DNA of 64,000 nucleotides, taken from Mageeibacillus sp. UBA1212. Its GTDB lineage: Bacteria > Bacillota > Clostridia > UBA1212. Position numbers and translations under genes: made by a program. The stretch covers positions 21,078 through 85,077 of the forward strand of contig DBXM01000003.1 in the NCBI GenBank assembly GCA_002309655.1, read 5' to 3'. The notes below the pieces were generated by a model. The model did no database searches, was not told the origin of the DNA, and saw only the letters and a program-made list of their open reading frames with translations. Shown here piece after piece: positions 36,049 to 56,016 of the stretch. Numbering within the stretch: position 1 is the stretch's first letter; every line of letters starts with the position of its first letter.

Positions 36049-36299
36049 CTTGTCGCCTTCCGTTCCCGTCAAATCACTCATTCAATTCCACTACGCACCG
36101 CTTTGTCAACACGCACCTGCAAAACGAACAAATTCCAGTATTATCAGTGTAGCGCCGAATTATTGATTTTACCTTGAAAAGCTACCGTTTTGCCGCCTGC
36201 ACCGGAATCCTGAGGATTCCCAAACTTGCTTCTTTACAAAGCGTGAACGTTCGTATAAACTTAACGTATAAAAATCCCGCAAGCAAAGGAACGCGCAAC

Positions 36300-37175
36300 A
36301 TGACAAAATTTGAAACTCTGACAAGTCTTTTGGAAAAGAACGCCCCCGGTGCGTACATGGCCGCCGAAATGACCGAAAACAGCTACGTTGAAAAACAGTT
36401 CAGGCTTGGAGCCGGCGCCCACAACACCTATTCGCTCTCGAAATCGGTTACCGCCTGCGCAGTCGGCATTCTTGAACGCGAGGGCCGCATCAAGGACACC
36501 GACACGGTTTTCAAGCACATTCCCGACCTGTTCCCGGAAGGCTACGACAAGAAATGGGAGACCGTAACCCTCGCCAACGTGATGCGCCACCGCACCGGAG
36601 TCGGACCTGAAGCGAACATCGACATCGACTCAATGGATTTCTGGGCCGACGGACACGACGACTTCCTCGCCTACATGCTCAGTCTGCCGATCATTTACGA
36701 GCCCGGGAAGGGACCGTTCGTCTACTGCGACACAAACTTCTACCTTATCGGCGTGGTCGTCGAGCGCATCACCGGTATGACCCTTTACGAGTTTCTTCAA
36801 CTAAATATGTTCAACATTCTGCGCTGGCGCGGTCACGCGTGGGGAACCTGTCCAAAAAACCACACTCTGGGCGGGACCGGCCTGTTTGCCCGAGTTCGCG
36901 ACCTCTGTGCGTACGGTCTTATGCTGGCGTGCGGCGGCGAGTTCGAAGGCAAGCGTATCCTGACGCCCGAGTGGATTGAAAAAGCCCGCTGCGAAAAGGG
37001 CAGCTACGGGTACGGGTTTACGAACTCCCCTGACGGACGGTGGTTTTTCACGGCCGGAGCCTACGGCCAGGTCGTCTACGTTTTCCCTGAAACGAGGGAA
37101 ACCTTCGCGGTGCTCGGGCACGACATGCCGATTGATCTTATAAACAGGGAGATCGTGCCGCTTTACCTCGGATAA
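36300..37175 (+). CDS. Serine hydrolase (beta-lactamase-related family)
   Basis: SLSKSV contains the SxxK motif. I chose the ATG at 36300 after AAAGGAA; the track ORF starts at 36174. Confidence 0.7.
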   Translation: MTKFETLTSLLEKNAPGAYMAAEMTENSYVEKQFRLGAGAHNTYSLSKSVTACAVGILEREGRIKDTDTVFKHIPDLFPEGYDKKWETVTLANVMRHRTGVGPEANIDIDSMDFWADGHDDFLAYMLSLPIIYEPGKGPFVYCDTNFYLIGVVVERITGMTLYEFLQLNMFNILRWRGHAWGTCPKNHTLGGTGLFARVRDLCAYGLMLACGGEFEGKRILTPEWIEKARCEKGSYGYGFTNSPDGRWFFTAGAYGQVVYVFPETRETFAVLGHDMPIDLINREIVPLYLG

Positions 37176-37202: not shown

Positions 37203-37230
37203 ACGGCTGAGGCTCACACGCCTCAGCCGT
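37203..37230. terminator. Intrinsic terminator between convergent genes
   Basis: ACGGCTGAGGC-TCACAC-GCCTCAGCCGT followed by TATTTG. Confidence 0.65.
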
Positions 37231-37306: not shown

Positions 37307-37837
37307 TCAGTCAAGCGGATCGTAAAATTCATGATTAAGTTCGTACGAAGTCGACCCGGCTTCTATAAACACCAGAATCGTTTTGATCCGTCTGCTGACG
37401 ATGTTGATAATAAAATTACTGAGTTCATATTTCTCGCTGTTGGAGTCCAGCCGCTGACGCAGTTCCTCGTATACATCAAGAGCGGTATTGAGTAGCTTCA
37501 CCGTTTTCGCGGTGAGTTCCTCCTCGGTAAGCTCATCGCTGAACTCAAACTGGATTCCGTTATCCAGAATACTGTAGGGAGGCAAGCCGGCCGGTGCGAA
37601 ATGCGTCCGTTTTTCGGTACTATTGTAACAGCGGATCAGCACGTCGGAAACTTTGTTTAACAGTTTCTTTTCGATCTCGTTGTCGTAGTACCGCGGCATG
37701 TTGATTACCGCGTACGAACAGTCGGTCACGCTGCAGTAGCCGTTATGGTAGGCCCTCATTTTGAGAACGGTCCCGACCTTGTCCGGATCTCCGGGATACT
37801 CCAAAGCCCTCAACTGATTTACATATTTCTGTTCCAT
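37307..37837 (-). CDS. Hypothetical protein
   Basis: 176 aa from the ATG at 37837, preceded by GGAGGTTATTGTC. No motif was recognised. It is AT-richer than its flanks by eye. Confidence 0.5.
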   Translation of the reverse strand: MEQKYVNQLRALEYPGDPDKVGTVLKMRAYHNGYCSVTDCSYAVINMPRYYDNEIEKKLLNKVSDVLIRCYNSTEKRTHFAPAGLPPYSILDNGIQFEFSDELTEEELTAKTVKLLNTALDVYEELRQRLDSNSEKYELSNFIINIVSRRIKTILVFIEAGSTSYELNHEFYDPLD

Positions 37838-38039
37838 GACAATAACCTCCGTTTGAAAAGTGTTTTGTGAATGTTTTTCAACAATCACATTGTACCACGT
37901 GTTTTCGCGGCGGAGGCCGGTTCGTGCCCAGTAAAATTGGGCAAATCGGAAAAATTGAAGATTTGCACAGAAAGCGCCCCGCGATTACGCGAAAATCCGC
38001 ACAACCGCGGGGCTCGACCCAACATTAATTAACGGCGCT

Positions 38040-38816
38040 TCAGTCCGTCAGCACAACGCAGTTTACAAAGCCGGTTTTGTTGACGCTCTGATCCAGCGCT
38101 ATGAACGAGTCTCCGAAGAAAGGCCGAAAACCCTCCGGCGGAACCGCGGAAACGTCAGTGTATTTTTTCTTTGCCCAGTCGTCCGGCGAGGCGTTTTGCA
38201 TCAGGAAGCACCGCGCGGCACTGTAATGCCCGAACACGACGATCTTCCCGGGAACCCTTATGCCGTGGAGCATGGAGAGCTTCATTCCGTCGCCTGTAGA
38301 CGCAGCTCCGCGCCATTCACGTTCGGTCGCGTCGCGCCAGTCGTCACGGTAGTATTTCTTCCTGTCCGTCGGTATAAAGCCGTGCGTGAAAACATAGTGC
38401 TCAGTTTCGAAAAACGGTACCGGAACACGCTCAAGGAAGTCTGTAAAACCGAGCCGCTCGCATTCCGCGGACAGTTCTTCGTCGGAAAGACCCGTTACAG
38501 AAGCTTCGCCCTTCCCGCTTAGATATGCGACGGCCTTCTCGGCGCAGGTGCGGTTCCCCTTCCTCCCGAAACGGCTCGACTTGAGGTTGTCCAGCAGCTC
38601 GTAATCGTGGTTCCCGTAAATGAACACCAGCCGGCCTTTCGAATTGATTCCGCTGAGGTACTCAAACAACTCGCCCGGCTCCGGCCCGGAGTAGAATGCG
38701 TCGCCGCACAAAACCAGCACGTGGTCCTCTCGGGAAGGGTCGAAGCCTTCCCGGTCAAGAGCCGCGCGCATCAAGCTGAAATGGTCGTGGATATCGGAAA
38801 CAGTAAAGTACTTCAT
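38040..38816 (-). CDS. Calcineurin-like metallophosphoesterase
   Basis: 258 aa with motifs SDIHDH, GDAFYSG, GNHDYE and GHY. Confidence 0.8.
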   Translation of the reverse strand: MKYFTVSDIHDHFSLMRAALDREGFDPSREDHVLVLCGDAFYSGPEPGELFEYLSGINSKGRLVFIYGNHDYELLDNLKSSRFGRKGNRTCAEKAVAYLSGKGEASVTGLSDEELSAECERLGFTDFLERVPVPFFETEHYVFTHGFIPTDRKKYYRDDWRDATEREWRGAASTGDGMKLSMLHGIRVPGKIVVFGHYSAARCFLMQNASPDDWAKKKYTDVSAVPPEGFRPFFGDSFIALDQSVNKTGFVNCVVLTD

Positions 38817-38822
38817 AGCCGC

Positions 38823-39647
38823 TTACTCCAAAATTCCCGCGCGGTCGACGACATCGCCGTTCTCGACGGCGATGTCGCCTTGCAGCAGCGCCTTGATGAC
38901 AAAGCCGTGGCCCGCTGCCAGGAACGGACAGTTCACAACATCCTTCATCGAACGGATGCCTAAGAACTCGCTCTCGGTAATCACGGGAACGCGCTTCTCC
39001 TTTTCGCACTTGTTCACATACTGTTTGTACTTGCCAAGCATCGAGCATTTCTCGTAGTAATTGTATCCGTCGAAATCCACCAGCGCAATCTTGGTGCCGC
39101 TGTCGACAAGCGACTTCATCCAGCGGAACGCTTCAGTGTCTGCGATAAGCTTCGCGTATTCCGGAAAGTACGCCTTCTTGCGCGACTCGACATAGTTTAG
39201 CGGCACGTATTCCCCCGAGTTCTTGTCGAACCATGCGAAATACAGGCAGTCGCTGTGTTCGTAGCCGAGGTCCTTGCAGGCGTGGCGCATCAGGTCCTTC
39301 GTGCACTCCGTTTTGGCGTAGAAGCCGTTCCTCCACTCGAAAAACCCGGCGTTCGGTTTGCCGTCGTTGTCGTGACACGGGTACACCTTGCCGCACTGCC
39401 AGAAGATCTCAAATATATTTGCCTTCGTTCCGTCAGGCGCGACAACGGGCCCGATAAAAAACGGGGACAGCTCCTTTCCGAAGCCCGGATGTTCGGCCAT
39501 GAAACTCCGGTCGCGTTCCACGCGGGAAGTAACGTCGATAACGGTATATTCCAAAAGGTCGTTTTCCGTCTGCCCTGTGTAAAAAGTGTTTGTGAACTTG
39601 ACGTTTAACGGATGGTGGCGGAGCATGAGAATGTTCTTGTTTTCCAA
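38823..39647 (-). CDS. Hypothetical protein (possibly remote NADAR/YbiA-like; unverified)
   Basis: 274 aa. The TTG start at 39647 lies 8 nt after GGGGAGGG. The segment ELSPFFIGPVVAPDGTKANIFEIFWQCGKVY loosely resembles the LSNF...G...E..fQ..K core of NADAR domains. It sits 6 nt from the phosphoesterase gene and 36 nt from the NadD-macro gene. Confidence 0.5.
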   Translation of the reverse strand: MENKNILMLRHHPLNVKFTNTFYTGQTENDLLEYTVIDVTSRVERDRSFMAEHPGFGKELSPFFIGPVVAPDGTKANIFEIFWQCGKVYPCHDNDGKPNAGFFEWRNGFYAKTECTKDLMRHACKDLGYEHSDCLYFAWFDKNSGEYVPLNYVESRKKAYFPEYAKLIADTEAFRWMKSLVDSGTKIALVDFDGYNYYEKCSMLGKYKQYVNKCEKEKRVPVITESEFLGIRSMKDVVNCPFLAAGHGFVIKALLQGDIAVENGDVVDRAGILE

Positions 39648-39683
39648 TTTGAGAGCCCTCCCCTATACAGTAATTGTCGTAAA

Positions 39684-41267
39684 TCAGGTAAACAACTCGT
39701 AAAAAGGCGCGAATTTCCCGTTTTTCCCGATGTACGATCTGCGCGCGGACGGCTTGCCCTCGTAGATCGCGAAGACCAGCTTGCGGAAACGGTTTTTGAA
39801 CTCGTCCTCTTCGAGAACGTCCCGGAACAGCGCGGCAACTTCGTCGCAGTGAAGGTTGTACACGCCGCAGCCGAAGGCGCCGAGCACCATGCTGTCGCGG
39901 CCGTTGTCCAGTGCGATTCGGGAAATAGTGCGGATCTTGTTGGCCTCGATTTCCCTGCCTGCAGGAGTCAGGCATCCCCTCGCGTCGAAGTACCCCCGCT
40001 CGTCGTTCGAGTATTCATTCTTCTCGCGGTTGGAGAGCGACGCCACGGTGACGACCGGGCAGTCGAAGGGTGTTTCGCGGAGCGCGAAAAGGCGGTCTAA
40101 GTTGTGGCGGAAGAACGTCACGCAGGGTGAGTACACGCCGCCGAAGTTCAAATCCAGAGGATAGACACCGGGCACGTTCGGCACCCCCGCCTCTCTGATG
40201 TGTTTATACTTGGGATTCCCGAACCTGTAGAGCGACTGGGATAACGTCGACGACCTGCAGAGCGATTCCTCCTGCGCGCTCGCCCCCTTGTGATAGCCTC
40301 CGCACGGAACCGTTCGCGAGGCCAGGTTGAGGATGGCCGGCCGCAGCCCCTCGCCGATTAGACCTTGAGCGACGTCAACGCAGTCGGCGTTCACGCACCC
40401 GAAAACAGTAGCGTCAGTCAGCGGCTCGCAGGAGACATTGAATTCACTTTTGTAGACCTTCGCCTCACGGTGTGCGTCGCGGTCGCCGAGCAACAGTTCC
40501 GGCCAAGCTTTGAAAAGCTCCGCGTTGAGCTTGTACACATACGCCTGCGCGCCGCTCTTCCCGTAATGTCCGCCGTACAAAATCTGCGCCTCGATTATCT
40601 CCTCCGGCGTTGGAGCGTGAAAATCAGCCGGCGAGAGCGTCTTCATCATACTGTACGGGCCGTCGTTCATAAGACTTTGGTAGTTCTTTCCCTCGAAAAA
40701 GCGGCGGCGAACCTCGGTGGAACTGACGTCTTCAAGATCGTCGTCGGCAACTGTAAGAAGGTGGATCCTGTCGCGGCAGCGGGTCAGGAGCGGACTGTTC
40801 CTGATGACCTGCTCTATATCGAACCGGCGCGCGTAAACGAGAATGTCGCACATCTGAATGATCTCTTCCGCGTTCTTCCAGTTCGGGAACTCCTTCAGCT
40901 TGTCCGCCCCGAACAGAAAAAACAACTTGATTTCTTCGCCCGGGTACTGTTTTTTCTTGTCTTTTAAAAGACGGACAAGCGTTGTGTACGTGCTCGGATA
41001 CGCCCCGCCCAGCTCGGTTCCCCAGTAGCTGAGCTTCGGGTTCTCGCGGGAAAGAGACCTGAGCATCCCGCTCCTCTGCTCCTCGGAAAGAATGAACCCG
41101 GACCGGTCCTCCGTTTTGAGCAGTATCTTTTTTGTCAGGTATTTGCCGTTCGTGGCCACAAAAACGCCCTCGTCGGCATTGGTTTTGGCTACAGCGTCCG
41201 AAATAACGGCGTAGTGAGCTTTCGTTACCGGATTGAAGGATCCGGTCATTACAACGATTCTTTTCAT
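39684..41267 (-). CDS. Fusion protein: NadD/NMNAT-like nucleotidyltransferase plus TIGR02452/microbial PARG-like macrodomain
   Basis: 527 aa. The N-terminal part has VMTGSFNPVTKAHY and SSTEVRRR (cytidylyltransferase-fold NMNAT signatures). The C-terminal part has NLASRTVPCGGYHKGASAQEESLCRSSTL and VLGAFGCGVY, typical of TIGR02452. Confidence 0.8.
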   Translation of the reverse strand: MKRIVVMTGSFNPVTKAHYAVISDAVAKTNADEGVFVATNGKYLTKKILLKTEDRSGFILSEEQRSGMLRSLSRENPKLSYWGTELGGAYPSTYTTLVRLLKDKKKQYPGEEIKLFFLFGADKLKEFPNWKNAEEIIQMCDILVYARRFDIEQVIRNSPLLTRCRDRIHLLTVADDDLEDVSSTEVRRRFFEGKNYQSLMNDGPYSMMKTLSPADFHAPTPEEIIEAQILYGGHYGKSGAQAYVYKLNAELFKAWPELLLGDRDAHREAKVYKSEFNVSCEPLTDATVFGCVNADCVDVAQGLIGEGLRPAILNLASRTVPCGGYHKGASAQEESLCRSSTLSQSLYRFGNPKYKHIREAGVPNVPGVYPLDLNFGGVYSPCVTFFRHNLDRLFALRETPFDCPVVTVASLSNREKNEYSNDERGYFDARGCLTPAGREIEANKIRTISRIALDNGRDSMVLGAFGCGVYNLHCDEVAALFRDVLEEDEFKNRFRKLVFAIYEGKPSARRSYIGKNGKFAPFYELFT

Positions 41268-41319: not shown

Positions 41320-42816
41320 TCAGTTCAGTTTTACTCTGATTGCGGGGCGAATGCCGGGTTGTTCCCCTTTCATGTTCTGTTCGTAGAATTCGCCGTCGGT
41401 ATCGAGGAAAACAAGCGATCCCGGTGCTTCGCCGTCGGTTGACGTCCACCACGGAGCGGTTCCGGTTTCCGGGTCGATTTCCACTCCGGAGTTGCCGTAA
41501 CCGTTGATAACGGCCTGTGCTCTCGCCCCCGCGAGAAGCATTTTTCGAGCACGTCGTTCGTTTTTCCCGTGCCGACGATCGTCGCGTCGTATGATTCGCC
41601 GTTGTAGAGCGCGACCTTGAAGCTCGTTCCTGACTCGAAAACGTGGTTGTTTGTGAGAATGTAGCCGTCGGTCAAGCAGTTTGTACCGCTTGATTTCATC
41701 GACTCCGAGAAGAAAAACGTAATCGCCGTTCTTGTCCGGAATCAATCCTTCCGTGTAATCATTCTTAAAAATGAAGTAAGCCATCTCGGACGTGAATCTC
41801 CGGATTTTCGAATGCAGGAAGTCTTCGCCGGACGGCCCCTCAAATAACCACCTTCTATTCGCGATATATGTGGATTCAAGACAGTCAGTTGAGAGAAGCA
41901 GCGCGGCGCCGTCTTCGATTTCGACTACGTACCAGAGGATTTCCCGATGGTTGTACCTGCCGAACCTGACCACGTCTCCCCTTTTTAAGTCCGCGGCGTG
42001 AATGTCTTTAACGACCGGATAAATGGTATCACCGATGTGTGCGCGAGCATAATCCACTATTAAATGATAATATTTTAACTCTTTTTTGGTGCGGCAGCGG
42101 TTGTTTTCCATCTCTTTTTGCGCATATTCATTATACTTTTTGATGTTGTAAGACGTCCCGATGCCCTCTTTCGACATCACCGCCAGCGCATAGTAAAGTC
42201 CCGGATAGTTTTTGCCGGCGTCGGCGTCGTCTTTCAGCTTCCAGTAGAGATCGGCAAGCTCGCTGTCGTCAAGATCGTCTGTCACCCCCTTGACCATAAG
42301 GGGATCCGTGTGGTAAGACATATAGTAATAAAACGCTTCAGGATAGTCTTTTTCCGTACCTATGCCGTCCTTGTAGCACCTGGCGAGATTCAACATACAG
42401 GAATCCCTGCAGGAAAGGAACTCTAACAGAAACGGTACGCCAGATCCGCCGTAGGGATGTATTTCAGCTCCGATTTTTGAAAATCTAAAGAAGTTCTCTT
42501 CATCGTCCCTTTCTTCCAAACAGTAATCCGCCAAATAACTTACCATTACTATATCACATTCATACCAGTAATCTACGACGTCCTCTGGAAACCAAAGCGG
42601 GAGTTTATCAAATACGCCATGAAAATCACCGCTGTTAATGGCAGACCGAAACACCTTGCGTAATATGCGGTCAATATTCTCCTGCGTCTCTTCTATCTCA
42701 CCGTTTTTGGCGGCAACGGCGTATTCGTAAAGCACTTCAATATCGGGCTCAGTCCCCTCTCCATTAAGGTAAGCTTCAACGATCTTTGTAATTTCAGTAT
42801 AATTATTATTCTCCAT
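41320..42816 (-). CDS. Sel1/TPR-like repeat protein with a C-terminal DUF6273-like domain; the central roughly 55 codons may be read out of the ancestral frame
   Basis: 498 aa. LARCYKDGIGTEKDYPEAFYYY is Sel1-like. The RFGRYNHREILWYVV...VFLLGVDEIKRY...WW...GIRPAIRV scaffold matches neighbouring DUF6273-like domains. An Arg-rich stretch coincides with the open alternative frame 41370..41699. Confidence 0.6.
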   Translation of the reverse strand: MENNNYTEITKIVEAYLNGEGTEPDIEVLYEYAVAAKNGEIEETQENIDRILRKVFRSAINSGDFHGVFDKLPLWFPEDVVDYWYECDIVMVSYLADYCLEERDDEENFFRFSKIGAEIHPYGGSGVPFLLEFLSCRDSCMLNLARCYKDGIGTEKDYPEAFYYYMSYHTDPLMVKGVTDDLDDSELADLYWKLKDDADAGKNYPGLYYALAVMSKEGIGTSYNIKKYNEYAQKEMENNRCRTKKELKYYHLIVDYARAHIGDTIYPVVKDIHAADLKRGDVVRFGRYNHREILWYVVEIEDGAALLLSTDCLESTYIANRRWLFEGPSGEDFLHSKIRRFTSEMAYFIFKNDYTEGLIPDKNGDYVFLLGVDEIKRYKLLDRRLHSHKQPRFRVRNELQGRALQRRIIRRDDRRHGKNERRARKMLLAGARAQAVINGYGNSGVEIDPETGTAPWWTSTDGEAPGSLVFLDTDGEFYEQNMKGEQPGIRPAIRVKLN

Positions 42817-43106
42817 CTTAAATCTCCTTCTTTTTCGTCGATAAATATGCCAATTATTACGTCAATTATTATAACTCAACAAGTTTCGAAACCGGTGTCA
42901 TTTAATATTATACCACATCTTTTTTCGGCACGCACATGCTTTGCACAAAAAATCTGTGCAAACAAAACTCCGTTGAGCATGACGCGCGGGACGCGGCCCA
43001 AAACTTCTGCCCGGCTGCCGGCGATGCGCCGTTTCAAGCTCCGTTTCCGCGTCCCGCGGCACGTATTTCGCCTTTTTTATCAAGGCTCAGTTTCTTTTTT
43101 TCACGT

Positions 43107-45122
43107 TCAATTCCCGACCGCATCCGGAGCTTTGCCGCCCAAAGCATCGGCAGTCACCCACATCGCCGGACGCACCCCCACATACCAGTCGGCGCAGCCT
43201 GCGTAGTCATATTTCGAAAACCGGAATAACGCGTTGCCGGCGCCGTTGTTTCCGGCCATCCACCAGGCGCAGACCGGCTCGCCTTTTACCTTGTAACACT
43301 TCCACGGACCCGCGCCCTCTTTTTTTGCGTACCCGGTCGGGATACACGCCATGTCATAACGCGATCCGAAATACTTTTCCGCGTCTTTTTTGCTGAGCAG
43401 AAACACACTGTCCAAGGCTTCGCAATTCACTCCGCCGCCGGCATCGGAGCTTGCGGCAAAAGGCACCTGTACGATCCGTTTCCGCTCCTCATCGGAAAAG
43501 GCATGCTCCAGGAACGCGCCGTGCAGCCACGCCCTTAAGGCACTTTTCTCCCACCATCGCCTTTCGTTTGGGCACCCCTTAAAGAGGGTGTGATATGCCG
43601 GATCAAAGTCGAATTCCATCGCGTCAATGGCAAATCTCGTGACCAGCAATGCCTTTTCGCCGTCATTTTCCAGAATTATCCACTCTATCGGAGCAAGCCC
43701 CCCTTTCTCGTCTTGCGGGTATGTTCCGAAAAACGTCGTATCACGAGATTTCCCGGAAATAACTTCTTTTTCAGGAGTTAAGCAGTCGCTGTCTGTGCGA
43801 GTTTCTTCGCCGGAATCGTTTTCATCTTTTCTAAGCGAGATCCTCATGACAGGCCGCACCGCAACGTCCAAAACCCTGACGGCAGTTCCGGCCTCGTCAA
43901 CGGAGCCGTCTTCTTCGACAATCGCGGCTGCGTTCTTTTCGCCTTTGTTTCTCAGCCACCAGCAACCATCGTTTCTCCCGTGCCGGTGGTAGCCGCCGCA
44001 GGCAATCGCGTAGTCCGTGAGCTCACACATGCGGTCCGCGTCCGAAGAAAAGTACTTTCCGGCCTCATCCGCGTCTAAAAAGAACACCTTGTCCGCCGTC
44101 TCGACGCCGTCCGTTTTGACACGGCTCTCCAGTATCTTCCCGCGCTCCTCAGGCGTGAACGCGTCCATAATAAACCAGTTGTTAAGCCAGTCCCGCATGT
44201 CGCTGTCCTTCCACTCGCAGCCCTCCTGATTGTAGAGCCTGGCGTCGAGTCCGTGCTTGCTGATAACCAGAGCCGTGTCGCCTTCCCGCTCCAGGATCTC
44301 CCACTCGATCGGCGCCTGTTCGCAATCCTTCCCGAACGGATAGGAGCCGAAAATCACGGACTCGCGCGCGGTTTTTGAGACATCAGTCTCGAAACCCGGA
44401 GAATCGGGAAATGCCGGCGGATTGAACTTTTCGAAATTCACAACGATTGCCGGCCGGACCGCAAGCTCAACAGACCCAATGTCCGCGCCGGAGTACTCGA
44501 TCTTGCCGTCGTGATTCACGGTAACCGCCGTGTACGGATCAGCGTGTTTGGAATGTGACCTGAGCCACCACCTGCACGATTTGTCTTCGGCAACGCAATC
44601 CTTCCCCATGGCGGCAACATAGTCGGTCGCCATACACTTTCCCAGGGAATACTCTTCAGCCTCGCTTAGGGACGGAACGAACGCCTCATCCTCGATTTCG
44701 ATATCGTACGGATTCTCGGTCGAGTAGAAACTAATGACGCGCCGCTCCTCCTCCGTAAAAGCAATTTTCAAAAACTCCCGGTTGAGCCAGCGCCTCATAT
44801 CGCTAAACCCCCACATCAGATTCCCGTCAAACGGAACCTCTTCAACCGTTTTATTTCCGGAACTCTTCCTGCCTCGGCGCTTGCCTCCGGACTGTTTATC
44901 GCCTTTCTGCTCACCGTCCCCCGGAATGTCGAACCGCCGTACATCAAGGGCGTACTTGCTTACAAGCAATGCCGAATTCAGGCAGCTGTCAATCACGCGC
45001 CACTCGATCGGCGCCAATTCCCCGTTCGGCCCCTGGGGGTAGGAGCCGAAAAGGATGGTGTTTCTTTTTACGGAAATTACTCTACTACTGTTATTCGGGA
45101 TATTTTCGGGAATTTTGTTCAT
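43107..45122 (-). CDS. Protein with three tandem DUF6273-like domains
   Basis: The FGSYPQ...PIEW...ALL.SK...WLN..F...AF...E...VF.L...E...WWLR...VRPA pattern occurs three times. No signal peptide was found. The ATG at 45122 lies 1 nt after the upstream stop; an alternative ATG is at 45143. Confidence 0.7.
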   Translation of the reverse strand: MNKIPENIPNNSSRVISVKRNTILFGSYPQGPNGELAPIEWRVIDSCLNSALLVSKYALDVRRFDIPGDGEQKGDKQSGGKRRGRKSSGNKTVEEVPFDGNLMWGFSDMRRWLNREFLKIAFTEEERRVISFYSTENPYDIEIEDEAFVPSLSEAEEYSLGKCMATDYVAAMGKDCVAEDKSCRWWLRSHSKHADPYTAVTVNHDGKIEYSGADIGSVELAVRPAIVVNFEKFNPPAFPDSPGFETDVSKTARESVIFGSYPFGKDCEQAPIEWEILEREGDTALVISKHGLDARLYNQEGCEWKDSDMRDWLNNWFIMDAFTPEERGKILESRVKTDGVETADKVFFLDADEAGKYFSSDADRMCELTDYAIACGGYHRHGRNDGCWWLRNKGEKNAAAIVEEDGSVDEAGTAVRVLDVAVRPVMRISLRKDENDSGEETRTDSDCLTPEKEVISGKSRDTTFFGTYPQDEKGGLAPIEWIILENDGEKALLVTRFAIDAMEFDFDPAYHTLFKGCPNERRWWEKSALRAWLHGAFLEHAFSDEERKRIVQVPFAASSDAGGGVNCEALDSVFLLSKKDAEKYFGSRYDMACIPTGYAKKEGAGPWKCYKVKGEPVCAWWMAGNNGAGNALFRFSKYDYAGCADWYVGVRPAMWVTADALGGKAPDAVGN

Positions 45123-45123
45123 T

Positions 45124-45495
45124 TTATGCCGCCTTTCTTGCATTTTTGACTGTTTTTGCAGGTTTATTTGCTTGTTTTTTTCTTTTTTTTGCCTTTTTTT
45201 CGGCTTCTTCCCGTTCTTTTTCAGCTTCTATTCGGTCTATTTCAGCTTTTTTCTGCAGGATTATCTCGGCTGCTTTCCGGAGTCTTTTAGCTTTGATTGA
45301 GCAGGTGATTTTTTTGACGATTGCTATTGTTTCGGGATCGTCAAGCAAAAAGAATTTGTCAAAGCATTCAATTGAGAACGTCTTGACTTCAAGGCCGAAG
45401 TCTACTGAAAAATAGTGGGCGGAAGCTTTAACGACAGTTCCCTCGCCGAAAACAACGTTCATGACTTTTTTACCGATTAATTTTTTGATACTCAT
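45124..45495 (-). CDS. Small protein with a Tudor/SH3-like N-terminal motif and a Lys/Glu-rich tail
   Basis: 123 aa from the ATG at 45495 (RBS GAGG). GKKVMNVVFGEGTVV...VDFG pattern; tail EKEREEAEKKAKKRKKQANK. Confidence 0.5.
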   Translation of the reverse strand: MSIKKLIGKKVMNVVFGEGTVVKASAHYFSVDFGLEVKTFSIECFDKFFLLDDPETIAIVKKITCSIKAKRLRKAAEIILQKKAEIDRIEAEKEREEAEKKAKKRKKQANKPAKTVKNARKAA

Positions 45496-45698: not shown

Positions 45699-46715
45699 CT
45701 ACTCGTTGATTGGATCAACCCCTTCGGCACGGAGTCTGTTGTTGATCTCATAAAAGGGGACGCGCTGTGCTAAAAGTCCCCTTATCGCTCTGAAACGTTT
45801 GTCCGTCTGCCTCTTCCACGCCCTCTTTTCATCGCCGGTTGCCGCAGCGTACTCGTCAAAAAGCCAGTCAAGCTCCGCGGGGCTCATCCCAAGATAGAAA
45901 GCCAGCGCAAACAGTTTTTCGACCTTGATCCGCCTTTTTTCGTACATATAGTCTGAGAGCGTGTTCCGGCTCATATTGCACGCATTGGCGCACTTTTCAA
46001 TCGTCGTATCCTTCTTATCGATTTTGTTTTTTAAGAACCAGTACAGACTGCCCGTGTCCGCCTCCGCACACTTTTTCGCAAACCCGTTATTTCCGGACCT
46101 CCTGTTCGCATTGCAGACTTTACAAACCGCCTCAAAATTGTTCGGATTCGCCTCAATCGCGTCGAGAACCTCGCACACCCTGCCAAAAACCGCCTCCGGC
46201 TTATTACAAGACCGAAAACTGACGTACGCGAACTCCTCCTTCGCGCCGGCGCCTCCCGACTTTCCGTCAATAACGACCAGCGCGGGCAGTGCGTTCCTTA
46301 CACCGTACAAATCGGCCAGCCGCGTCATCAGCTCATATCTCGGCCTTGGATTCCAGGCCTTTTTGAACTCCCCCTCCAATGCGCACTGCACCGACCCGGC
46401 AAGGCTTCCGTCGTTTTTCCATTTGTCGAAAACCGCCTCCGGGTAGACGGTGAACAGCGGCATGTCCGCCTTCAGCCTGTTGTTCAGCCTCGCGCCGTAT
46501 TCAGTAAGGAACGGCGCGGAAATAACGTCCCCCGATGCGTATAGATAGAGCAAAACGTACCGGTCAGTCGTAACGGATCTCTCTCCGACAGCCTTCCAAA
46601 CGTTCTTCGGCGTGAGGTTGTCGTAAACGCCTCCAAGCGTGCTGTCGTCGCGAATGTTCGCAACAAGGCCCAAAGTGGAGGTCGCTTTCCCGAATGGATC
46701 GAAATAAATAGGCAT
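45699..46715 (-). CDS. Protein of unknown function with a C-terminal XRE-type helix-turn-helix
   Basis: 338 aa. TIEKCANACNMSRNTLSDYMYEKRRIKVEKLFALAFYLGMSPAELDWLF resembles an XRE HTH. Confidence 0.55.
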   Translation of the reverse strand: MPIYFDPFGKATSTLGLVANIRDDSTLGGVYDNLTPKNVWKAVGERSVTTDRYVLLYLYASGDVISAPFLTEYGARLNNRLKADMPLFTVYPEAVFDKWKNDGSLAGSVQCALEGEFKKAWNPRPRYELMTRLADLYGVRNALPALVVIDGKSGGAGAKEEFAYVSFRSCNKPEAVFGRVCEVLDAIEANPNNFEAVCKVCNANRRSGNNGFAKKCAEADTGSLYWFLKNKIDKKDTTIEKCANACNMSRNTLSDYMYEKRRIKVEKLFALAFYLGMSPAELDWLFDEYAAATGDEKRAWKRQTDKRFRAIRGLLAQRVPFYEINNRLRAEGVDPINE

Positions 46716-46762: not shown

Positions 46763-47785
46763 TTATCTATGGGGCCAATAAAGCTCCCGTATGTGCTTCA
46801 AGAGTCTGGGATCATGATACTTTGGCGGCTGCCTCCAGCAAATATCCTCAATTAAATCGTCTATCTCGCCGTCGTGTGATATCGATGAAATCCAGTTTGC
46901 CTGTTTTTCCGCAAGAGACCACACCCAATCAGAATGAAAGAAATCATGTAAGTAAAATGCAAATGCCAAATGCCCAACCTCATGACTAAATACCTTATCC
47001 AGCATTTCCATTAGCGTCGGCGGATATAACGTCATGGATTTAATCATTCCAGACATATTCTCAGGCGCCAACAAAATAATAGTCTCCCCAGCATTCACAT
47101 TACCCGACCCCAGCATAAGATTATTGAGCCCACGAGCTAATGATGCATCAACAAACTGAACATAACAACCCATGAAATCCTGGATTGAAATCAATTTTTT
47201 ATTAATGTCGACATTGTCCTTGATTGCGAGCAAACCATCATCAGCATTAGCAACAAGAATAATCTTGTCTAGGCAACCTATTGCATTTGAATGTTCGACA
47301 TAGTGCTGAGGCGATGTGTGTTTGAATATGTTGTCCAGATACGAATCTATCTTTTCCAAATACCAGTTGATTTTCAAAGGAATCTCTGCAGCCAAACGGG
47401 ATTTTCGGAAATTATCTGAACACAGTAACTCAATGTTATGGGGATTAAATAGTCTTGGAGCAGACTTTACCTTGTCCGACCATGAATTATTGTATATATC
47501 ACAATACAAATCATTGAATGCGGGTAAATTGTTGAATACTTCTATAGCCAATTTGCTATTGTTGTTAAACCCGGTACCACTCGCAAGGAAATGGTAGTTG
47601 GCTAACTTTTTCCTTATGCTTGCTTCGCTTATTCTAATGTTAGCTTTTTCCAGATCCAGACACAAGTCCTTTGGCTTAATCTGAGGGCTAATAAGCGCTG
47701 CTCTGGCACACATTATTTCTTCTAAAGCATGCCAAGTGTGTTTCTTTTCATAGTATTTCAAATCTTCGTGGTTCAAATCAATCAT
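46763..47785 (-). CDS. HEXXH-motif protein (putative zinc metallopeptidase)
   Basis: 340 aa with a single HEVGH motif (VFSHEVGHLAFAF). It lies in an AT-rich region. Confidence 0.5.
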   Translation of the reverse strand: MIDLNHEDLKYYEKKHTWHALEEIMCARAALISPQIKPKDLCLDLEKANIRISEASIRKKLANYHFLASGTGFNNNSKLAIEVFNNLPAFNDLYCDIYNNSWSDKVKSAPRLFNPHNIELLCSDNFRKSRLAAEIPLKINWYLEKIDSYLDNIFKHTSPQHYVEHSNAIGCLDKIILVANADDGLLAIKDNVDINKKLISIQDFMGCYVQFVDASLARGLNNLMLGSGNVNAGETIILLAPENMSGMIKSMTLYPPTLMEMLDKVFSHEVGHLAFAFYLHDFFHSDWVWSLAEKQANWISSISHDGEIDDLIEDICWRQPPKYHDPRLLKHIRELYWPHR

Positions 47786-48002: not shown

Positions 48003-49940
48003 TCATTTATCAGTAATCTCAAAAAACGCAAAGAGCGCCTTTTTCAGAACAGCCCTTCTTGTATCTAAAAACTTCTTGAAATTCTTAAGTTCAAAATATT
48101 CAATAGTTGGCTCCCCATCCGGAACATCGTCCCCACACACATAATTATTTATTGAGTATTCGTGTAAATTGGGTTTTCTGTAATCTTTCAACCATTGAGA
48201 AAGAGGCTTATCATTCTTCTCGCCTCTGTTTCCATATTCATCAAGAAGTTGTAGATTTGCAAAATCATTTACTCGCTTTTTATAGTATTGATATAGTTCT
48301 TCATTCTCGTCATTTCTTCCACCAAGAATATCAAAGAACAATCCCTCGTTTTCAGCTTTCTCATATTTTTTGGGATGCATGTGATCGACGTCATATTCGA
48401 TTGTGTTGTCTGGTCTATTTTTGCGTGATAACAGGTAAAGAATCTGTTTTATATAATCACGGTCTTTTACATAATTCTTATCAAGAATAGCCTCGACCGC
48501 ATCCCTTGATACATCAAAGAAAGTGCCACCTCCCGCTATAACGCTGTCATTTAATCGAGAAAAGTTGAATTCTCGTCCTTTACCAAAAAGAGTAATATTG
48601 TTTCTGTTGTTTTTGCCAAGCACTTCTATTATTTTGGACATTACTGTATCTGTGCTCTGCGCAAAAGCATCTGATACCAAAGACACCTCGTAATATCGTT
48701 CGATCTCAACTTCTGCGGTTTTCGTTTGTTTGCCATTGTAATAAAAATAATAGACAATCGGTAAAAACATACTGTATGGCGTATTTCTGTCAAAAGTAAA
48801 ATGCCCATTGACAAAGACTTTTTTAGCCAAAAGAAACGCTTTTTCGATTCTATCCATTATTTCTTGTGTAATAACTACTTGGTTCGAATGTGTCATAAAG
48901 AATTTACTAAACGACGCATTATCTTCTCTGAAAGCCAACCAAATAAAACGAAGAATATTATCCTGAGAAAATCTGCTTTTTTTACCGCTACCATTGTTTT
49001 TGCTATTTATACTAGAAACAGCATTATCAAAGAGTTCCCATAAATTATCAACGTCTGAGCTTTTTGCAATTTGAGCGAACAATAAATCAGTTGGGTTCAA
49101 CGGACGCCCGCTTTTATTCAACCTGACAAAAACCTCAAATAGTTTTTCTATGGTGCTAACATTAGTATTAATTATACGCAAATCTACAATTGCATACGGA
49201 AGCCCGCCAGACTTAAATCGACTAATAATCGCGTTAAAATTTCGTTGTGCCTGGTCTTCGTGTTCATTGTAATACTTAACAACAGAATCGATTTTTCTAA
49301 CTGTCGCATTGTCTTTACGCGTCTTTATACCCTTGACATTTTTATAGCATTTTTCATTTTCTGAAAAATCATTTATGAACTCCTTTATAAACGCAGCGGT
49401 TTTTACCCTGTCATCACGACATTCCCAAATAGATTTAACCGGAACCCACAAATGTCTCTCTTCCACAAATCCGCCATCTGAATAATACCGGAAAGCCGAT
49501 GGCTCTGTTCCGTCATAAAGCAAATTAAAATACAACAAGTATCTTTTATCGTCAATTACGTACTTGTTGTTCAGCCCCCGATAAAGAGCCGTTACCCTTT
49601 GCTGGCCATCTATAATACAATATCTTTTGTTGCTTTCATTAAGGAAGTTGCGTATTTTTCTGCTTCCTCTAATATCTGTTTGCTCTTCATTCTTATTTAC
49701 TGGATAATAATCAGTTATTTTACGATCTTCTTCGTTATTCAGTGGCCATAACAAAAGATTGCCAACCGGAAAACCCTTATAAAGACTGTCAAAGAAACTT
49801 GCTATGTCTTCTTTTGACCATACCACGCCACGCTGAATGGCCGGTAAGCAAAAGTTGTTGCTCACAGCATCAACAATATCAGCGAAGCTTAACTCGCCTT
49901 GATTATTTAAACGACCACTATTCCCAAGTTTATTTGCCAT
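48003..49940 (-). CDS. GmrSD-type DUF262/DUF1524 nuclease (type IV restriction-like)
   Basis: 645 aa. The N-terminal part has LPAIQRGVVWSKEDIASFFDSLYKGFPVGNLLLW and IIDGQQRVTAL (DUF262, DGQQR). The C-terminal part has DVDHMHPKK...ANLQLLDEYGNRGEKNDK (His-Me/DUF1524). Confidence 0.8.
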   Translation of the reverse strand: MANKLGNSGRLNNQGELSFADIVDAVSNNFCLPAIQRGVVWSKEDIASFFDSLYKGFPVGNLLLWPLNNEEDRKITDYYPVNKNEEQTDIRGSRKIRNFLNESNKRYCIIDGQQRVTALYRGLNNKYVIDDKRYLLYFNLLYDGTEPSAFRYYSDGGFVEERHLWVPVKSIWECRDDRVKTAAFIKEFINDFSENEKCYKNVKGIKTRKDNATVRKIDSVVKYYNEHEDQAQRNFNAIISRFKSGGLPYAIVDLRIINTNVSTIEKLFEVFVRLNKSGRPLNPTDLLFAQIAKSSDVDNLWELFDNAVSSINSKNNGSGKKSRFSQDNILRFIWLAFREDNASFSKFFMTHSNQVVITQEIMDRIEKAFLLAKKVFVNGHFTFDRNTPYSMFLPIVYYFYYNGKQTKTAEVEIERYYEVSLVSDAFAQSTDTVMSKIIEVLGKNNRNNITLFGKGREFNFSRLNDSVIAGGGTFFDVSRDAVEAILDKNYVKDRDYIKQILYLLSRKNRPDNTIEYDVDHMHPKKYEKAENEGLFFDILGGRNDENEELYQYYKKRVNDFANLQLLDEYGNRGEKNDKPLSQWLKDYRKPNLHEYSINNYVCGDDVPDGEPTIEYFELKNFKKFLDTRRAVLKKALFAFFEITDK

Positions 49941-55294: not shown

Positions 55295-55389
55295 TTATAA
55301 ATCCTCCATCGGTTAACCATGTTTTATACAAACTCTTAATATGTGCAACATGGGATGATTACCTGAATCTACGCAAGATTTAAGGGAAA

Positions 55390-56016
55390 TCACGACTGCT
55401 TCTGCTTTATCTTGTTGCTTGCATTCTTATCACACTGGTAAAGATATTTATCTACATCTTTAAATGATTTGCCACATTTCTTTAGTGATTTGGCGCCGTC
55501 AAGCCCTTTTTCAAAGATTCCCAAACATTTCCTAATATAATCAATGTAAGTACAAACAGCATCATCGTTTTTCCCCTGCGGCACTTTTTTTGAACTATCG
55601 GAATAAGCGGTTCTATATGCTCTTGTATCTATTATTGGAAATGCATTTTCATTAAAGAAGTGCAGAATCGTGCTTGCCATTGCAATTCGAATTCCTTTTT
55701 TTGCATCTAAGAGAGACCTAACAACCTTCTTGGTCTCATCTTCTCTATTCAAAACATCCTCAGGGCCACAAACCTCCTTGCAGAAATTAAAAACTGTCAA
55801 AAGTGATTCATTGTCAACATCGACTATACGGTCAACCTTCCACAAAACGATTTCGTTAAGGACGGGCTTTAGTTCTTCTCCATTGATGACACTCTTTTCT
55901 CTAAGAGAAACGACGTTGGTCTTAATGTTTTTGCCATAATCAGTTTCATCCACAATGTTGTAACTGTATTCATTTAATACTATTTCAGGATCTATTTCGT
56001 TTTGTCTGTTATTCAT
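55390..56016 (-). CDS. Hypothetical protein
   Basis: 208 aa, AT-rich. The segment GIRIAMASTILHFFNENAFPIIDTRAYR is the only conspicuously conserved-looking stretch. No family was assigned. Confidence 0.5.
   Translation of the reverse strand: MNNRQNEIDPEIVLNEYSYNIVDETDYGKNIKTNVVSLREKSVINGEELKPVLNEIVLWKVDRIVDVDNESLLTVFNFCKEVCGPEDVLNREDETKKVVRSLLDAKKGIRIAMASTILHFFNENAFPIIDTRAYRTAYSDSSKKVPQGKNDDAVCTYIDYIRKCLGIFEKGLDGAKSLKKCGKSFKDVDKYLYQCDKNASNKIKQKQS

Follow-up and report, generated by a model that had tools for sequence, protein, structure and literature searches.

Organization of the cassette

Three adjacent genes on the minus strand of a gut or rumen Clostridia genome, lying within the 64,000-nucleotide stretch of DNA that was analysed (the window), encode four enzymatic domains associated with NAD/ADP-ribose chemistry (Table 1). 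The gene positions and the intergenic gaps of 36 nt (genes 1 and 2) and 6 nt (genes 2 and 3) in the initial annotation match the open reading frame (ORF) listing exactly, and all the motifs it quoted are present in the translations (GSFNPVTKAHY, SSTEVRRR, GASAQEESLCRSS and GAFGCGVY, and the phosphoesterase motifs DxH/GD/GNHD). In support of the gene 2 start codon, a GGGGAGGG ribosome-binding site lies 7–8 nt upstream, and the homologues of the protein all start with MENKN. A hairpin with a strong stem and a weak T-tail (GCTTTCTGTG) lies 27 nt past the gene 3 stop codon. This fits a single transcription unit, for which the hairpin is the probable terminator. The Sel1-repeat protein encoded upstream of gene 1 has homologues adjoining the cassette in three related loci (L006, L007 and L017), there on the opposite side, and is placed outside the cassette core because it is present in only four of the 26 loci compared.

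Table 1. Coordinates of the cassette genes, their domains and flanking features in the window.
Feature	Positions	Strand	Description	Source
Gene 1	39684..41267	-	527 aa, ATG start	ORF listing
NMNAT/NadD-like domain of gene 1	40638..41267	-	~aa 1–210; GSFNPVTKAH, GAD...W130, SSTEVR	
Bacterial-type PARG macrodomain of gene 1	39738..40478	-	~aa 264–510; CGG-x7-QEE, GAFGCGVY	
Gene 2	38823..39647	-	274 aa, TTG start	ORF listing
Gene 3	38040..38816	-	258 aa, ATG start	ORF listing
Terminator-like hairpin	37976..38013	-	17-bp stem, 11 G-C pairs; operon end	
Sel1-repeat protein gene	41320..42816	-	498 aa; 52 nt upstream of gene 1; possible loose associate	

Gene 1: an NMNAT–PARG fusion

Gene 1 encodes a true fusion of an NMNAT/NadD-like domain with a bacterial-type PARG macrodomain. 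Both halves, as originally proposed, were confirmed by TIGR00482, PF10021 and TIGR02452 and by structure alignments. There are 671 homologues, and every one among the matches listed carries both domains. The N-terminal half matches CTP_transf_like (E 5.9e-12) and aligns end to end with NadD and NMNAT3 structures (2h29, 5z9r, 4s1o). The T-x-x-H of its GSFNPVTKAH motif is a variant of the HIGH motif that is also found in eukaryotic NMNATs. Across 28 sequences there is no variation at residues G9–P13, H18, G120, D122, W130, S182 or R187, and the ATP-binding and pyridine-binding motifs are intact. The macrodomain matches PARG_cat_microb (PF10021; E 7e-22) and TIGR02452 (109 bits, cut-off 50), and it aligns with the Thermomonospora curvata PARG structure 3sig (E 2e-12) across the QEE motif and GCG loop, as well as significantly with 5zdb. 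The same 28 sequences show no change at Q332, E333 or G466-C467-G468, and at least 90% of them keep E334. The catalytic residues of both halves, whose possible loss had been raised in the initial annotation, are thus present and conserved, and the catalytic motifs are under purifying selection. The fusion was not found in the phage genomes searched.

That gene 1 is merely a standard housekeeping NadD carrying an inactive extra domain, next to two unrelated genes, is scarcely credible. Relatives are annotated by JGI as nicotinate (nicotinamide) nucleotide adenylyltransferase, in keeping with the intact NMNAT motifs, but the match to TIGR00482 (88 bits, E 6e-25) lies under its 112-bit equivalog cut-off, and gene 1 falls short of every NadD equivalog cut-off. 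The invariant catalytic residues of the macrodomain argue against an inert appendage, as do the strict co-conservation of gene 1 with genes 2 and 3 while the genomic context changes, and the location of the cassette in a variable island beside, rather than within, a core gene block.

Gene 2: a putative NADAR-like hydrolase

Gene 2, initially described as having no assignable family, encodes a long-form DUF6939 protein and is a putative ADP-ribosyl N-glycohydrolase of the NADAR superfamily (DarG1-like). Profile and motif comparisons show that DUF6939, previously unassigned, is a branch of this superfamily of ADP-ribosyl-nucleobase hydrolases. The link of gene 2 itself to NADAR is transitive, through its family: the protein scores only 15 bits against the DUF6939 model (cut-off 27) and matches no NADAR model in profile searches. 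Among 100 family members, 96 match DUF6939 and 27 match PF22397, the DarT1-associated NADAR antitoxin (best E 1.6e-7). The family profile matches the G. lovleyi NADAR 8bat (E 0.0025) exactly at the TS..LSPF..ENxWQxSKVY motif; hhalign against a thin three-sequence NADAR alignment gave no match. For the structural model (pLDDT 92.7), the top PDB fold match is the NADAR–ADP-ribose complex 8bau, at weak scores (E 0.18, TM 0.28/0.37). E80 is at least 90% conserved, and K87 is invariant in 31 sequences and kept in at least 90% of the 100-member set. These residues form a candidate catalytic pair that reproduces the NADAR E-x6-K arrangement, for which E43/K50, E88/K95 and E36/K43 have been characterised (PMC11543638, PMC11825919).

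The long form is distinguished by additional residues at its N-terminus and by an insertion of ~40 aa. DUF6939 is also found fused to NADAR, 2H-phosphoesterase or DUF4326 domains. Short-form DUF6939 genes are common in large phages, where their neighbours include NAMPT (twice), ADP-ribosylglycohydrolase, NADAR, CinA and Nlig-Ia. Elsewhere, one distant short-form DUF6939 gene again has a PPP-type phosphoesterase as its partner, together with a NUDIX gene.

Gene 3: a metallophosphoesterase

Gene 3 encodes a metallophosphoesterase of the lambda-phosphatase/PnkP/ApaH clade. Its original identification as a calcineurin-like phosphoesterase holds (Metallophos, E 2.6e-8), and the metal ligands D8, H10, D39, N69, H70, H145 and H197 are invariant in 26 sequences. 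The AF2 model (pLDDT 93) has a helical insert of its own at ~aa 80–130, and its Foldseek matches are led by 1g5b (5e-8), followed by 4j6o (4e-7), the C. thermocellum PnkP phosphatase domain, and 2qjc/9ojd (1e-5). The RNA-ligase-associated phosphoesterase phrog_8238 matches at 1e-8. The first 80 residues align with ApaH, but the protein falls well short of the equivalog cut-offs for ApaH and PrpE (27 versus 176 bits). The likeness to ADP-ribose/CDP-alcohol pyrophosphatases that had also been suggested did not stand: no such structure is among the best 50 fold matches listed, and the closest matches are lambda phosphatase, PnkP and ApaH, not the ADP-ribose pyrophosphatase type. Most members of this clade dephosphorylate proteins or polynucleotides or hydrolyse Ap4A, and the role of gene 3 in the cassette is a guess.

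These matches bear on the idea of a nucleic-acid end-healing or repair operon, like the ligase-PARG-PNK operon proposed for D. radiodurans DRB0098-0100. In such an operon, the phosphoesterase would strip 2′,3′-cyclic or 3′-phosphates, the macrodomain would take ADP-ribose off phosphorylated DNA/RNA ends or 2′-OH groups, and the DUF6939 protein would clear base adducts. To our knowledge, NMNAT has no role in end repair, and no ligase, kinase or Hen1-type partner was found in or near the cassette in the related loci examined. We consider end repair distinctly unlikely, even with the PnkP phosphatase domain second among the fold matches, the phrog_8238 match, the fusion of DUF6939 to a 2H phosphoesterase in P0335, and the activity of bacterial PARGs, located in a repair-type operon, on ADP-ribosylated phosphate ends (PMC11833690).

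Conservation and genomic context

Of the 26 loci carrying a gene 2 homologue (at least 55% identity), 24 also encode the fusion and 22 also encode the phosphoesterase, which bears out the treatment of the three genes as one cassette; some absences are contig ends (L017 for the fusion, L034 for the phosphoesterase). Since more than 20 independent contigs carry the three genes side by side, at 46–74% identity, the arrangement is far beyond chance. Two gene orders occur, flanking genes vary by genome, and no fourth recurrent partner was found across the 26 loci. The cassette is chromosomal in bacteria and moves horizontally, with a patchy and mobile distribution. As for the ADP-ribosyltransferase or NADase toxins anticipated as neighbours in relatives, no such gene adjoins the cassette, either in the window or at any of the related loci. 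No operon pairing a NADAR-like gene, a phosphoesterase and an NMNAT–PARG fusion was found in the literature searched.

The surrounding island is of the accessory or defence type, as had been proposed, and holds GmrSD, a methyltransferase and repeat-protein arrays; in relatives, SRA-type restriction genes and WYL regulators occur close to the cassette. Such company, together with the patchy, mobile distribution, could suggest that the cassette itself provides anti-phage defence or signalling, by making or degrading an NAD-derived nucleotide signal or by depleting a metabolite upon infection. This is improbable: it has no sensor and no effector-type toxic domain, all four domains look like erasers or biosynthetic enzymes, and the cassette is absent from PADLOC apart from a single marginal 16-bit match for the phosphoesterase.

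Proposed function

Our preferred, tentative reading is that the cassette is a self-contained, toxin-less three-gene operon whose enzymes remove ADP-ribose adducts and restore the NAD pool. Bacterial PARGs cleave ribose-ribose, RNA 2′-OH and phosphate-end ADP-ribose links, and the macrodomain would likewise cleave such O-glycosidic bonds. The gene 2 product would cut N-glycosidic bonds between ADP-ribose and nucleobases; its characterised relatives DarG1 and AdfN act on guanine. The phosphoesterase might process a phosphate-bearing product or nucleic-acid end, with ADP-ribose, ADP-ribose-1″-phosphate and 2′/3′-phosphates as candidate substrates, and the fused NMNAT would re-adenylylate NMN or NaMN and so refill the NAD spent by the attacking enzyme. 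The cassette may therefore act as an orphan enzymatic antidote against ADP-ribosyltransferase or NAD-consuming toxins in phage-bacteria or inter-bacterial conflict. The domain identities, conserved catalytic residues, co-conserved genes, variable context and lack of a neighbouring toxin are observations; substrates, reaction order and biological role are all inferred. The intact active sites, the co-conservation of the genes and the defence-type island speak for this reading. Removal of ADP-ribose is strengthened by the membership of DUF6939 in the NADAR superfamily; orphan NADARs serve in counter-defence (PMC11825919), and bacterial PARGs give protection from the RNA-targeting toxin RhsP2 (PMC11833690). 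Counting against this reading, simple NAD refilling gives no account of the physical NMNAT–hydrolase fusion, and there is no Nampt or NadV to supply NMN. The lack of a toxin neighbour at all loci compared, the transitive link of gene 2 to NADAR with its weak fold match, the cassette's absence from PADLOC and that of the fusion from the phage genomes searched also weigh against it.

The same domains could instead salvage or rebuild NAD from small molecules, much as the phage NARP pathways do, with free NADase products rather than macromolecules as substrates. The macrodomain would take phosphate or acyl groups off ADP-ribose derivatives (e.g., ADPR-1″-phosphate, as Adpp does), ADP-ribose-type products would be converted by the phosphoesterase and the DUF6939 protein, and the NMNAT would catalyse the last step to NAD, which would buffer the cell against NAD loss to NADase toxins or defence systems. 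Consistent with this are the intact ATP- and pyridine-binding motifs, the macrodomain phosphatases known as NARP1 add-ons (bioRxiv 10.64898/2026.01.28.702374), the NMNAT-type enzymes that complete the NARP2 and NARP3 pathways (PMC13464706), and the NAMPT and CinA genes that sometimes adjoin phage DUF6939 genes. However, enzymes that make NMN (Nampt/NadV, NadR kinase) or ADPR-PP (Adps, Namat) are absent from the cassette and not recurrent nearby in the 26 loci, and with no Nampt, Adps or Namat the cassette does not encode a full route from ADP-ribose to NAD. The macrodomain is also PARG-type rather than Poa1p-type, the characterised NADAR relatives (DarG1, AdfN and a plant-pathogen NADAR) work on nucleic-acid adducts, and the cassette resides in bacterial chromosomes, not phages. 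We regard NAD salvage as rather unlikely.

Comparison with known systems

Gene 3 resembles the lambda Ser/Thr phosphatase, the PnkP phosphatase domain and ApaH (PPP-like) in fold and in all seven metal ligands, and differs in its helical insert and in scoring below the ApaH and PrpE cut-offs. The DUF6939 family has the same N-terminal TS...LS(P/x)F...E-x6-K core as the DarT1-associated antitoxin DarG1 and the phage orphan NADAR AdfN (PF22397; 8bat; PMC11543638, PMC11825919), and HMM matches tie the gene 2 family to PF22397. Like phage AdfN, DUF6939 occurs without a DarT toxin. It is nevertheless a separate Pfam family, whose NADAR-like role is putative, and gene 2 is a 274-aa long form, with its extension and insert, locked into one operon with genes for a phosphoesterase and for an NMNAT–PARG fusion.

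The macrodomain resembles bacterial-type PARGs (DUF2263/PF10021/TIGR02452; T. curvata, D. radiodurans DRB0099, S. coelicolor SCO0909) in its QEE catalytic motif and its GxxGCGxF/Y diphosphate loop, although their GGG-x6-8-QEE signature reads CGG-x7-QEE in gene 1, which also has an NMNAT domain fused at its N-terminus. Bacterial PARGs are found in a three-gene repair-type operon and protect against RNA ADP-ribosylation by RhsP2 (PMC11833690); there the operon also encodes a ligase and a PNK, whereas in the cassette a NADAR-like protein and a PPP-type phosphoesterase take their place.

In the phage pathways NARP1(-AP), NARP2 (Nampt plus a NadM NMNAT::Nudix fusion) and NARP3 (NadR), an NMNAT-type enzyme is joined with an ADP-ribose-processing domain in one polypeptide or operon, as in the cassette. 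The cassette differs in having no Nampt, Adps, Namat or PnuC, in its fusion partner, a PARG-type macrodomain rather than a Nudix or kinase domain, and in its location in bacterial chromosomes, the NARPs being phage-borne. A conflict-related role common to the cassette and the NARPs is plausible.

Organization and surroundings of the cassette

The cassette consists of three minus-strand open reading frames separated by 36 and 6 nt, and the ORF listing agrees on this with the initial annotation. The TTG start of gene 2 is preceded by a GGGGAGGG ribosome-binding site, and the same MENKN opening is found in its homologues. The cassette's last stop codon is followed after 27 nt by a hairpin whose stem measures 17 bp. 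As had been proposed, the cassette sits at the edge of an accessory array: the island begins just upstream, and an ORF without an assigned family, a beta-lactamase-fold gene and a solute-binding-protein gene follow downstream, then infC-rpmI-rplT. The GC content is 0.55 in the cassette, compared with 0.55–0.58 in the core part of the window, and it falls to 0.36–0.45 in stretches farther along the island.

The island encodes Sel1, DUF6273, WG-repeat and LRR_5 proteins, an HTH protein with an adjoining HExxH protein, GmrSD, a DUF2779 protein and an N6-methyltransferase (see table). The HTH_3 gene and its neighbour resemble the ImmR/ImmA-type regulator pairs that mobile elements typically carry; in related locus L032, an HTH and Peptidase_M78 gene of similar kind occurs 2 kb from the fusion gene. 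The GmrSD-type type IV restriction gene lies in a patch of GC 0.36, against 0.55–0.58 for the window, and was probably acquired recently. The N6_Mtase–Methylase_S protein is of type IIG or type I-like, and together with the DUF2779 and GmrSD genes it makes the region resemble a defence island. A second, palindromic hairpin, between the convergent beta-lactamase-fold gene and the ORF without family, reads as a terminator on both strands.

Features of the cassette, of its surroundings in the window and of related loci (L-numbers)
Sequence	Feature	Position	Strand	Details
Window	Gene 1, NMNAT::PARG fusion	39684-41267	-	527 aa
Window	Gene 2, long-form DUF6939	38823-39647	-	274 aa, TTG start
Window	Gene 3, phosphoesterase	38040-38816	-	258 aa
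Window	Beta-lactamase-fold gene	36174-37175	+
Window	Palindromic hairpin	37203-37230		Perfect, 11 bp, 8 G-C pairs
Window	ORF without family	37307-37888	-	193 aa
Window	HTH_3 (Cro/C1-type) protein and adjoining protein	45699-46715 and 46763-47785	-	Adjoining protein 340 aa, HEVGH zinc-protease-like motif
Window	GmrSD-type enzyme	48003-49940	-	645 aa, GmrSD_N + GmrSD_C
Window	N6_Mtase fused to Methylase_S specificity domain; DUF2779 protein	58743-60635 and 50577-52115	-
Window	Repeat-protein array	41320-45143 and 54164-58674	-	Sel1, 498 aa; triple DUF6273, 678 aa; WG repeats, 376 aa; LRR_5+DUF6273, 729 aa
L002	RVT_1 reverse-transcriptase + LRR_5 protein	2309-7336		1675 aa; 1 kb upstream of cassette; 117-kb contig
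L023	Stand-alone NMNAT-like gene, then three tandem DUF6939 paralogues	1341-5248
L028 (also L029-L031)	ORF related to macrodomain	2295-2615		106 aa
L036 (also L037, L038)	N6_N4 methylase, NUDIX, 124-aa unknown, short-form DUF6939, PPP-type phosphoesterase	4112-7370		Contigs of 169-246 kb

Gene 1 joins an NMNAT-like domain to a PARG-type macrodomain

The fusion of an NMNAT/NadD-type domain to a TIGR02452-type macrodomain, read at first from motifs, is borne out by Pfam, NCBIfam and structure alignments, with the NadD equivalog cut-off not reached. Over its first 210 residues the protein matches CTP_transf_like (E 6e-12) and TIGR00482 NadD (E 6e-25; 88.4 bits, under the equivalog cut-off of 112.45), and gene 1 falls far under the cut-off of every other NadD model in NCBIfam. 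By sequence, the domain is best classed as NadD-like and not as an equivalog. It can be aligned over its full length to NadD and NMNAT3 structures, with the motifs GSFNPVTKAH, GAD...W130 and SSTEVR. The ATP-binding (H/T)xxH within G-x-F-x-P is present, GSFNPVTKAH aligning with GQFNPIHTAH (2h29) and GSFNPITNMH (5z9r), as is the C-terminal ISSTxxR motif in the form VSSTEVRRR, likewise aligned to structures. Across 28 homologues, down to 48% identity, G9, S10, F11, N12, P13, H18, G120, D122, W130, S182 and R187 are invariant. From NMNAT structures we take W130, the Trp of the GAD...W motif, to be the pyridine-stacking residue.

Residues 264–510 match PF10021 (78.8 bits, cut-off 23.5) and TIGR02452 (109.4 bits, cut-off 50), and align with the PARGs of T. 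curvata (E 2e-12) and D. radiodurans (E 2e-10). The PARG signature reads C322-G-G-x7-Q332-E333-E334; the first Gly of GGG-x6-8-QEE is Cys in the family consensus. The diphosphate-binding loop GAxGCGxF/Y is present as GAFGCGVY, aligned with GAWGCGVF of 3sig. In the same 28 homologues Q332, E333, G466, C467 and G468 are invariant, and E334 is conserved in at least 90%. With these residues conserved and aligned to NadD/NMNAT and PARG structures, both halves look catalytically competent. Of the 671 homologues found, every one among the matches listed retains both domains; the fusion is accordingly an old and stable one. Reading the NadD matches as a housekeeping NadD was rejected, and is scarcely credible, because the protein lies under the NadD cut-offs, the catalytic residues of both halves are conserved and its partner genes are co-conserved.

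Gene 2 is a predicted long form of DUF6939 with ties to NADAR hydrolases

Gene 2 had been left without an assignable family; it can now be placed in DUF6939 and, at the family level, is linked to NADAR hydrolases. Its best match is a 99% identical protein of a ‘Clostridia bacterium’ MAG, and 253 close homologues of equal length come mostly from rumen and gut Clostridia MAGs. The protein scores 15.4 bits (E 0.015) against DUF6939 (PF22075), under the gathering cut-off of 27 bits; its close relatives score 26.8–27.7 bits, and the match is borderline in many. DUF6939 is matched by 96 of 100 proteins retrieved with the gene 2 family profile, which makes the window protein a divergent, long member of this family. 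At least 786 relatives were retrieved when 1.84 billion representative proteins were searched by profile; most are ~200 aa long and match residues 55–200. Compared with these, gene 2 is a long form, having an N-terminal extension and a ~40-aa insert.

Residues conserved family-wide are T40-S41, L60-S61-P62-F63, E80, Q84 and K87 in ENxWQxSKVY, R156, Y160, P162, Y164, D191 and D193 in DFDGY, and G246-H247. K87 is invariant in 31 sequences, and E80 and K87 are each conserved in at least 90% of 100. In NADARs the catalytic Glu precedes the catalytic Lys by seven positions (E43/K50 in PnNADAR, E88/K95 in E. coli C7 NADAR, E36/K43 in T4 AdfN; PMC11543638, PMC11825919). E80 and K87 have the same spacing, and their motif aligns with vEsafQsSKvf of 8bat. 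D191, D193 and H247, each at least 90% conserved, are candidates for the third catalytic residue (Glu/Asp/His by the distal ribose).

Four lines, drawn from sequence and modelling, tie DUF6939 to the NADAR hydrolases. Beyond the shared residue pair, PF22397 (‘DarT1-associated NADAR antitoxin’) is matched individually by 27 of 100 family members (best E 1.6e-7), and family profile A2 matches 8bat (G. lovleyi NADAR, DarG1) at E 0.0025, with the alignment falling exactly on TS..LS.F..E..fQ.SKv; the larger profile A3 reaches E 0.024. The AlphaFold2 model (pLDDT 92.7) has as its top PDB match the NADAR–ADP-ribose complex 8bau, weakly (E 0.18, probability 0.47, TM 0.28/0.37), and its strong fold matches are uncharacterised giant-virus proteins only. 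DUF6939 is elsewhere fused to canonical NADAR domains, a 2H phosphoesterase and DUF4326. Two of the three DUF6939–NADAR fusions also carry a long unassigned N-terminal region, which may be SLOG-like. The window protein itself had no direct match to NADAR (PF08719, PF22397) at E values up to 10, single-sequence and narrow-profile searches of it against PDB sequences gave only noise, and hhalign of the DUF6939 alignment against three NADAR sequences cut from fusion proteins was negative, a result given no weight because so thin a template is poor. Through the NADAR link, a family of at least 786 representative clusters gains a testable function, for which E80 and K87 are the residues of first interest.

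Gene 3 is a calcineurin-like phosphoesterase

Gene 3 matches Pfam Metallophos at 35 bits (cut-off 21.5), and seven metal ligands (D8, H10, D39, N69, H70, H145 and H197, in the motifs DxH, GD, GNH(D/E), H and GH) are invariant in 26 sequences. Its best specific matches are ApaH, weakly, and the NinI-like phosphatase phrog_246 (3e-16); it lies below both ApaH equivalog cut-offs (27.3 bits against 176, and 17.6 bits against 223). In Foldseek searches, the AlphaFold2 model (pLDDT 93.3) matched lambda phosphatase 1g5b (5e-8), the PnkP phosphatase domain 4j6o (4e-7) and the Ap4A hydrolases 2qjc, 9ojd and 2dfj (1e-5 to 6e-5), with eukaryotic PP5, PP1 and calcineurin lower in the list. The modelled fold is therefore closest to the lambda-PP/PnkP/ApaH clade.

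The calcineurin-like assignment of the initial annotation thus stands on the Metallophos match and the metal ligands. Its more specific hint at an ADP-ribose/CDP-alcohol pyrophosphatase (ADPRibase-Mn) is unsupported, as no such enzyme is among the top 50 PDB fold matches or the sequence matches listed. The PnkP match may recall nucleic-acid end repair as in the D. radiodurans PARG operon, a rival reading that we regard as distinctly unlikely.

Co-conservation of the three genes and their hosts

Related loci were collected from contigs encoding homologues and by a scan of GTDB genomes, and all ORFs up to 7 kb away from the gene 2 homologue were clustered. The three genes are co-conserved across genomes: at the loci with a gene 2 homologue of at least 55% identity, the fusion is present in 24 of 26 and the phosphoesterase in 22 of 26. 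Contig ends explain some of the gaps (L017 without the fusion, L034 without the phosphoesterase); L009 also lacks the phosphoesterase, and in L014 a DUF7834 gene takes its place. Two gene orders occur, fusion-DUF6939-phosphoesterase and phosphoesterase-DUF6939-fusion. The flanks vary by genome and include ABC transporters, AddAB-like helicase genes, WYL regulators, an SRA-type restriction gene and LRR_5 arrays. Recurrent additional families within 7 kb are LRR_5 (10 of 26 loci), one unnamed family (6 of 26) and a Sel1 protein (4 of 26); DUF6273 genes also flank cassette relatives. The search for a recurrent fourth gene or toxin in these 26 loci found no family in more than 10 and no recurring ADP-ribosyltransferase or NADase, toxins that the initial annotation had suggested looking for beside relatives.

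Most hosts are Clostridia of the rumen and gut, and some are Bacilli or Anaeroplasma. Homologues of at most 49% identity occur in Erysipelotrichaceae, Bacteroidales, Parasutterella and Lachnospiraceae, where the partners are absent and LRR_5 and Sel1 genes adjoin. L023 represents an alternative architecture of the system, with no macrodomain and no phosphoesterase; two of its DUF6939 paralogues carry an extra N-terminal extension of ~120 aa. The small ORF in L028, located 5.6 kb from the full cassette, shares 63% identity with the C-terminal 84 residues of the macrodomain; it could be what is left of a second copy, or a short fragment that stands alone. In L002 a large reverse-transcriptase protein with LRR_5 lies close to the cassette.

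DUF6939 in phages and other viruses

DUF6939 has a wide distribution, covering large and jumbo phages as well as bacteria of the gut and rumen; giant viruses encode structurally related proteins. We found its short form in 66 GenBank phage records, among them Klebsiella phages of ~145 kb, Erwinia/Dickeya jumbo phages and metagenomic phages of 460–735 kb, and it is ‘hypothetical’ in every annotated record. A scan with a 31-sequence alignment added 77 IMG/VR loci. The viral genes are usually solitary among small ORFs. Pfam searches of 150 neighbours from 56 non-redundant viral loci gave NAMPT twice and ADP_ribosyl_GH, NADAR, CinA, Nlig-Ia and Metallophos once each, in which an apparent enrichment for the NAD/ADP-ribose network is visible. 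The viral-contig scan with long-form patterns returned nothing, and the NMNAT::PARG fusion was not found in phages; phage G and Lak phages have stand-alone PARG-type macrodomains only.

In the branch nearest the long form (relative P0264 in L036–L038, and L045), a PPP-type phosphoesterase lies immediately downstream of DUF6939, and L036–L038 have a NUDIX gene two genes upstream. A universal DUF6939–phosphoesterase pair was rejected: only one of the 77 viral loci has it, so the pairing is limited to this branch and the cassette. The gene set of L036–L038 represents a compact form of the module. It may belong to a phage or plasmid of very large size, and most genes on these contigs are unannotated.

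Proposed function and comparison with known systems

The common theme of the four domains is ADP-ribose chemistry. Bacterial PARGs cleave ribose–ribose O-glycosidic bonds, RNA 2'-OH-ADP-ribose and phosphate-end ADP-ribose, and confer protection against RhsP2 (PMC11833690). NADARs cleave the N-glycosidic ADP-ribose–guanine bond and serve as antitoxins or as orphan phage counter-defence (PMC11543638, PMC11825919). From this shared chemistry and these activities we therefore propose, tentatively, a toxin-less ADP-ribose eraser module with NAD refill. The PARG-type macrodomain and the NADAR-like DUF6939 protein would act as two complementary ADP-ribose hydrolases, the phosphoesterase would process the product or end, and the NMNAT domain would refill NAD.

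The physical fusion of NMNAT to PARG is poorly accounted for by every explanation, and this unexplained architecture may indicate new ADP-ribose chemistry. One highly speculative idea, to which we give very little credence, is that the NMNAT-like domain adenylylates 5''-phosphoribosyl remnants (X-ribose-5-phosphate) and does not serve the general NAD pool. Such remnants would arise on nucleic acids or proteins when pyrophosphatases cut ADP-ribose adducts, and they are chemically analogous to NMN; the rebuilt ADP-ribosyl adduct would be removed by the fused macrodomain or the NADAR-like enzyme. If true, phosphoribosyl scars that are otherwise irreversible would be repaired in two steps, and the fusion would be explained. 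A less exotic idea is that DUF6939 may be a novel clade of NADARs whose base or linkage specificity is itself new.

Each domain family is already known. The literature searched yielded no NADAR assignment of DUF6939, no NMNAT::PARG as a conserved family and no such three-gene cassette, and a full-text search for ‘DUF6939’ found no paper. PHROGs and PADLOC returned nothing for the fusion, and PHROGs, NCBIfam and PADLOC nothing for gene 2; the island setting could suggest that the cassette is a defence system in its own right, which we hold to be very unlikely. It is best filed with orphan ADP-ribosylhydrolase and NAD-conflict modules.

Unlike DarTG1, which has an adjacent DarT1 ADP-ribosyltransferase gene, the cassette has no ART-like gene in its window neighbourhood, and none recurs in the 26 related loci. 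The NAD-forming domain might also point to small-molecule NAD salvage of the NARP kind, a reading that we consider unlikely; the NARP1, NARP2 and NARP3 pathways rest on Adps+Namat, Nampt+NadM and PnuC+NadR, respectively, whereas the cassette has none of these sets and none is recurrent nearby. The eraser module proposed here would be a new combination, in which two chemically distinct ADP-ribose erasers, an NAD-forming enzyme and a phosphatase occur without a toxin partner. Should the cassette prove protective, it would show that an ‘orphan immunity’ based on enzymes circulates among Firmicutes of the gut and rumen as a shield from ADP-ribosylating toxins, and it would represent, in bacteria, a multi-enzyme equivalent of orphan antitoxins of phages such as AdfN and of NAD reconstitution pathways.
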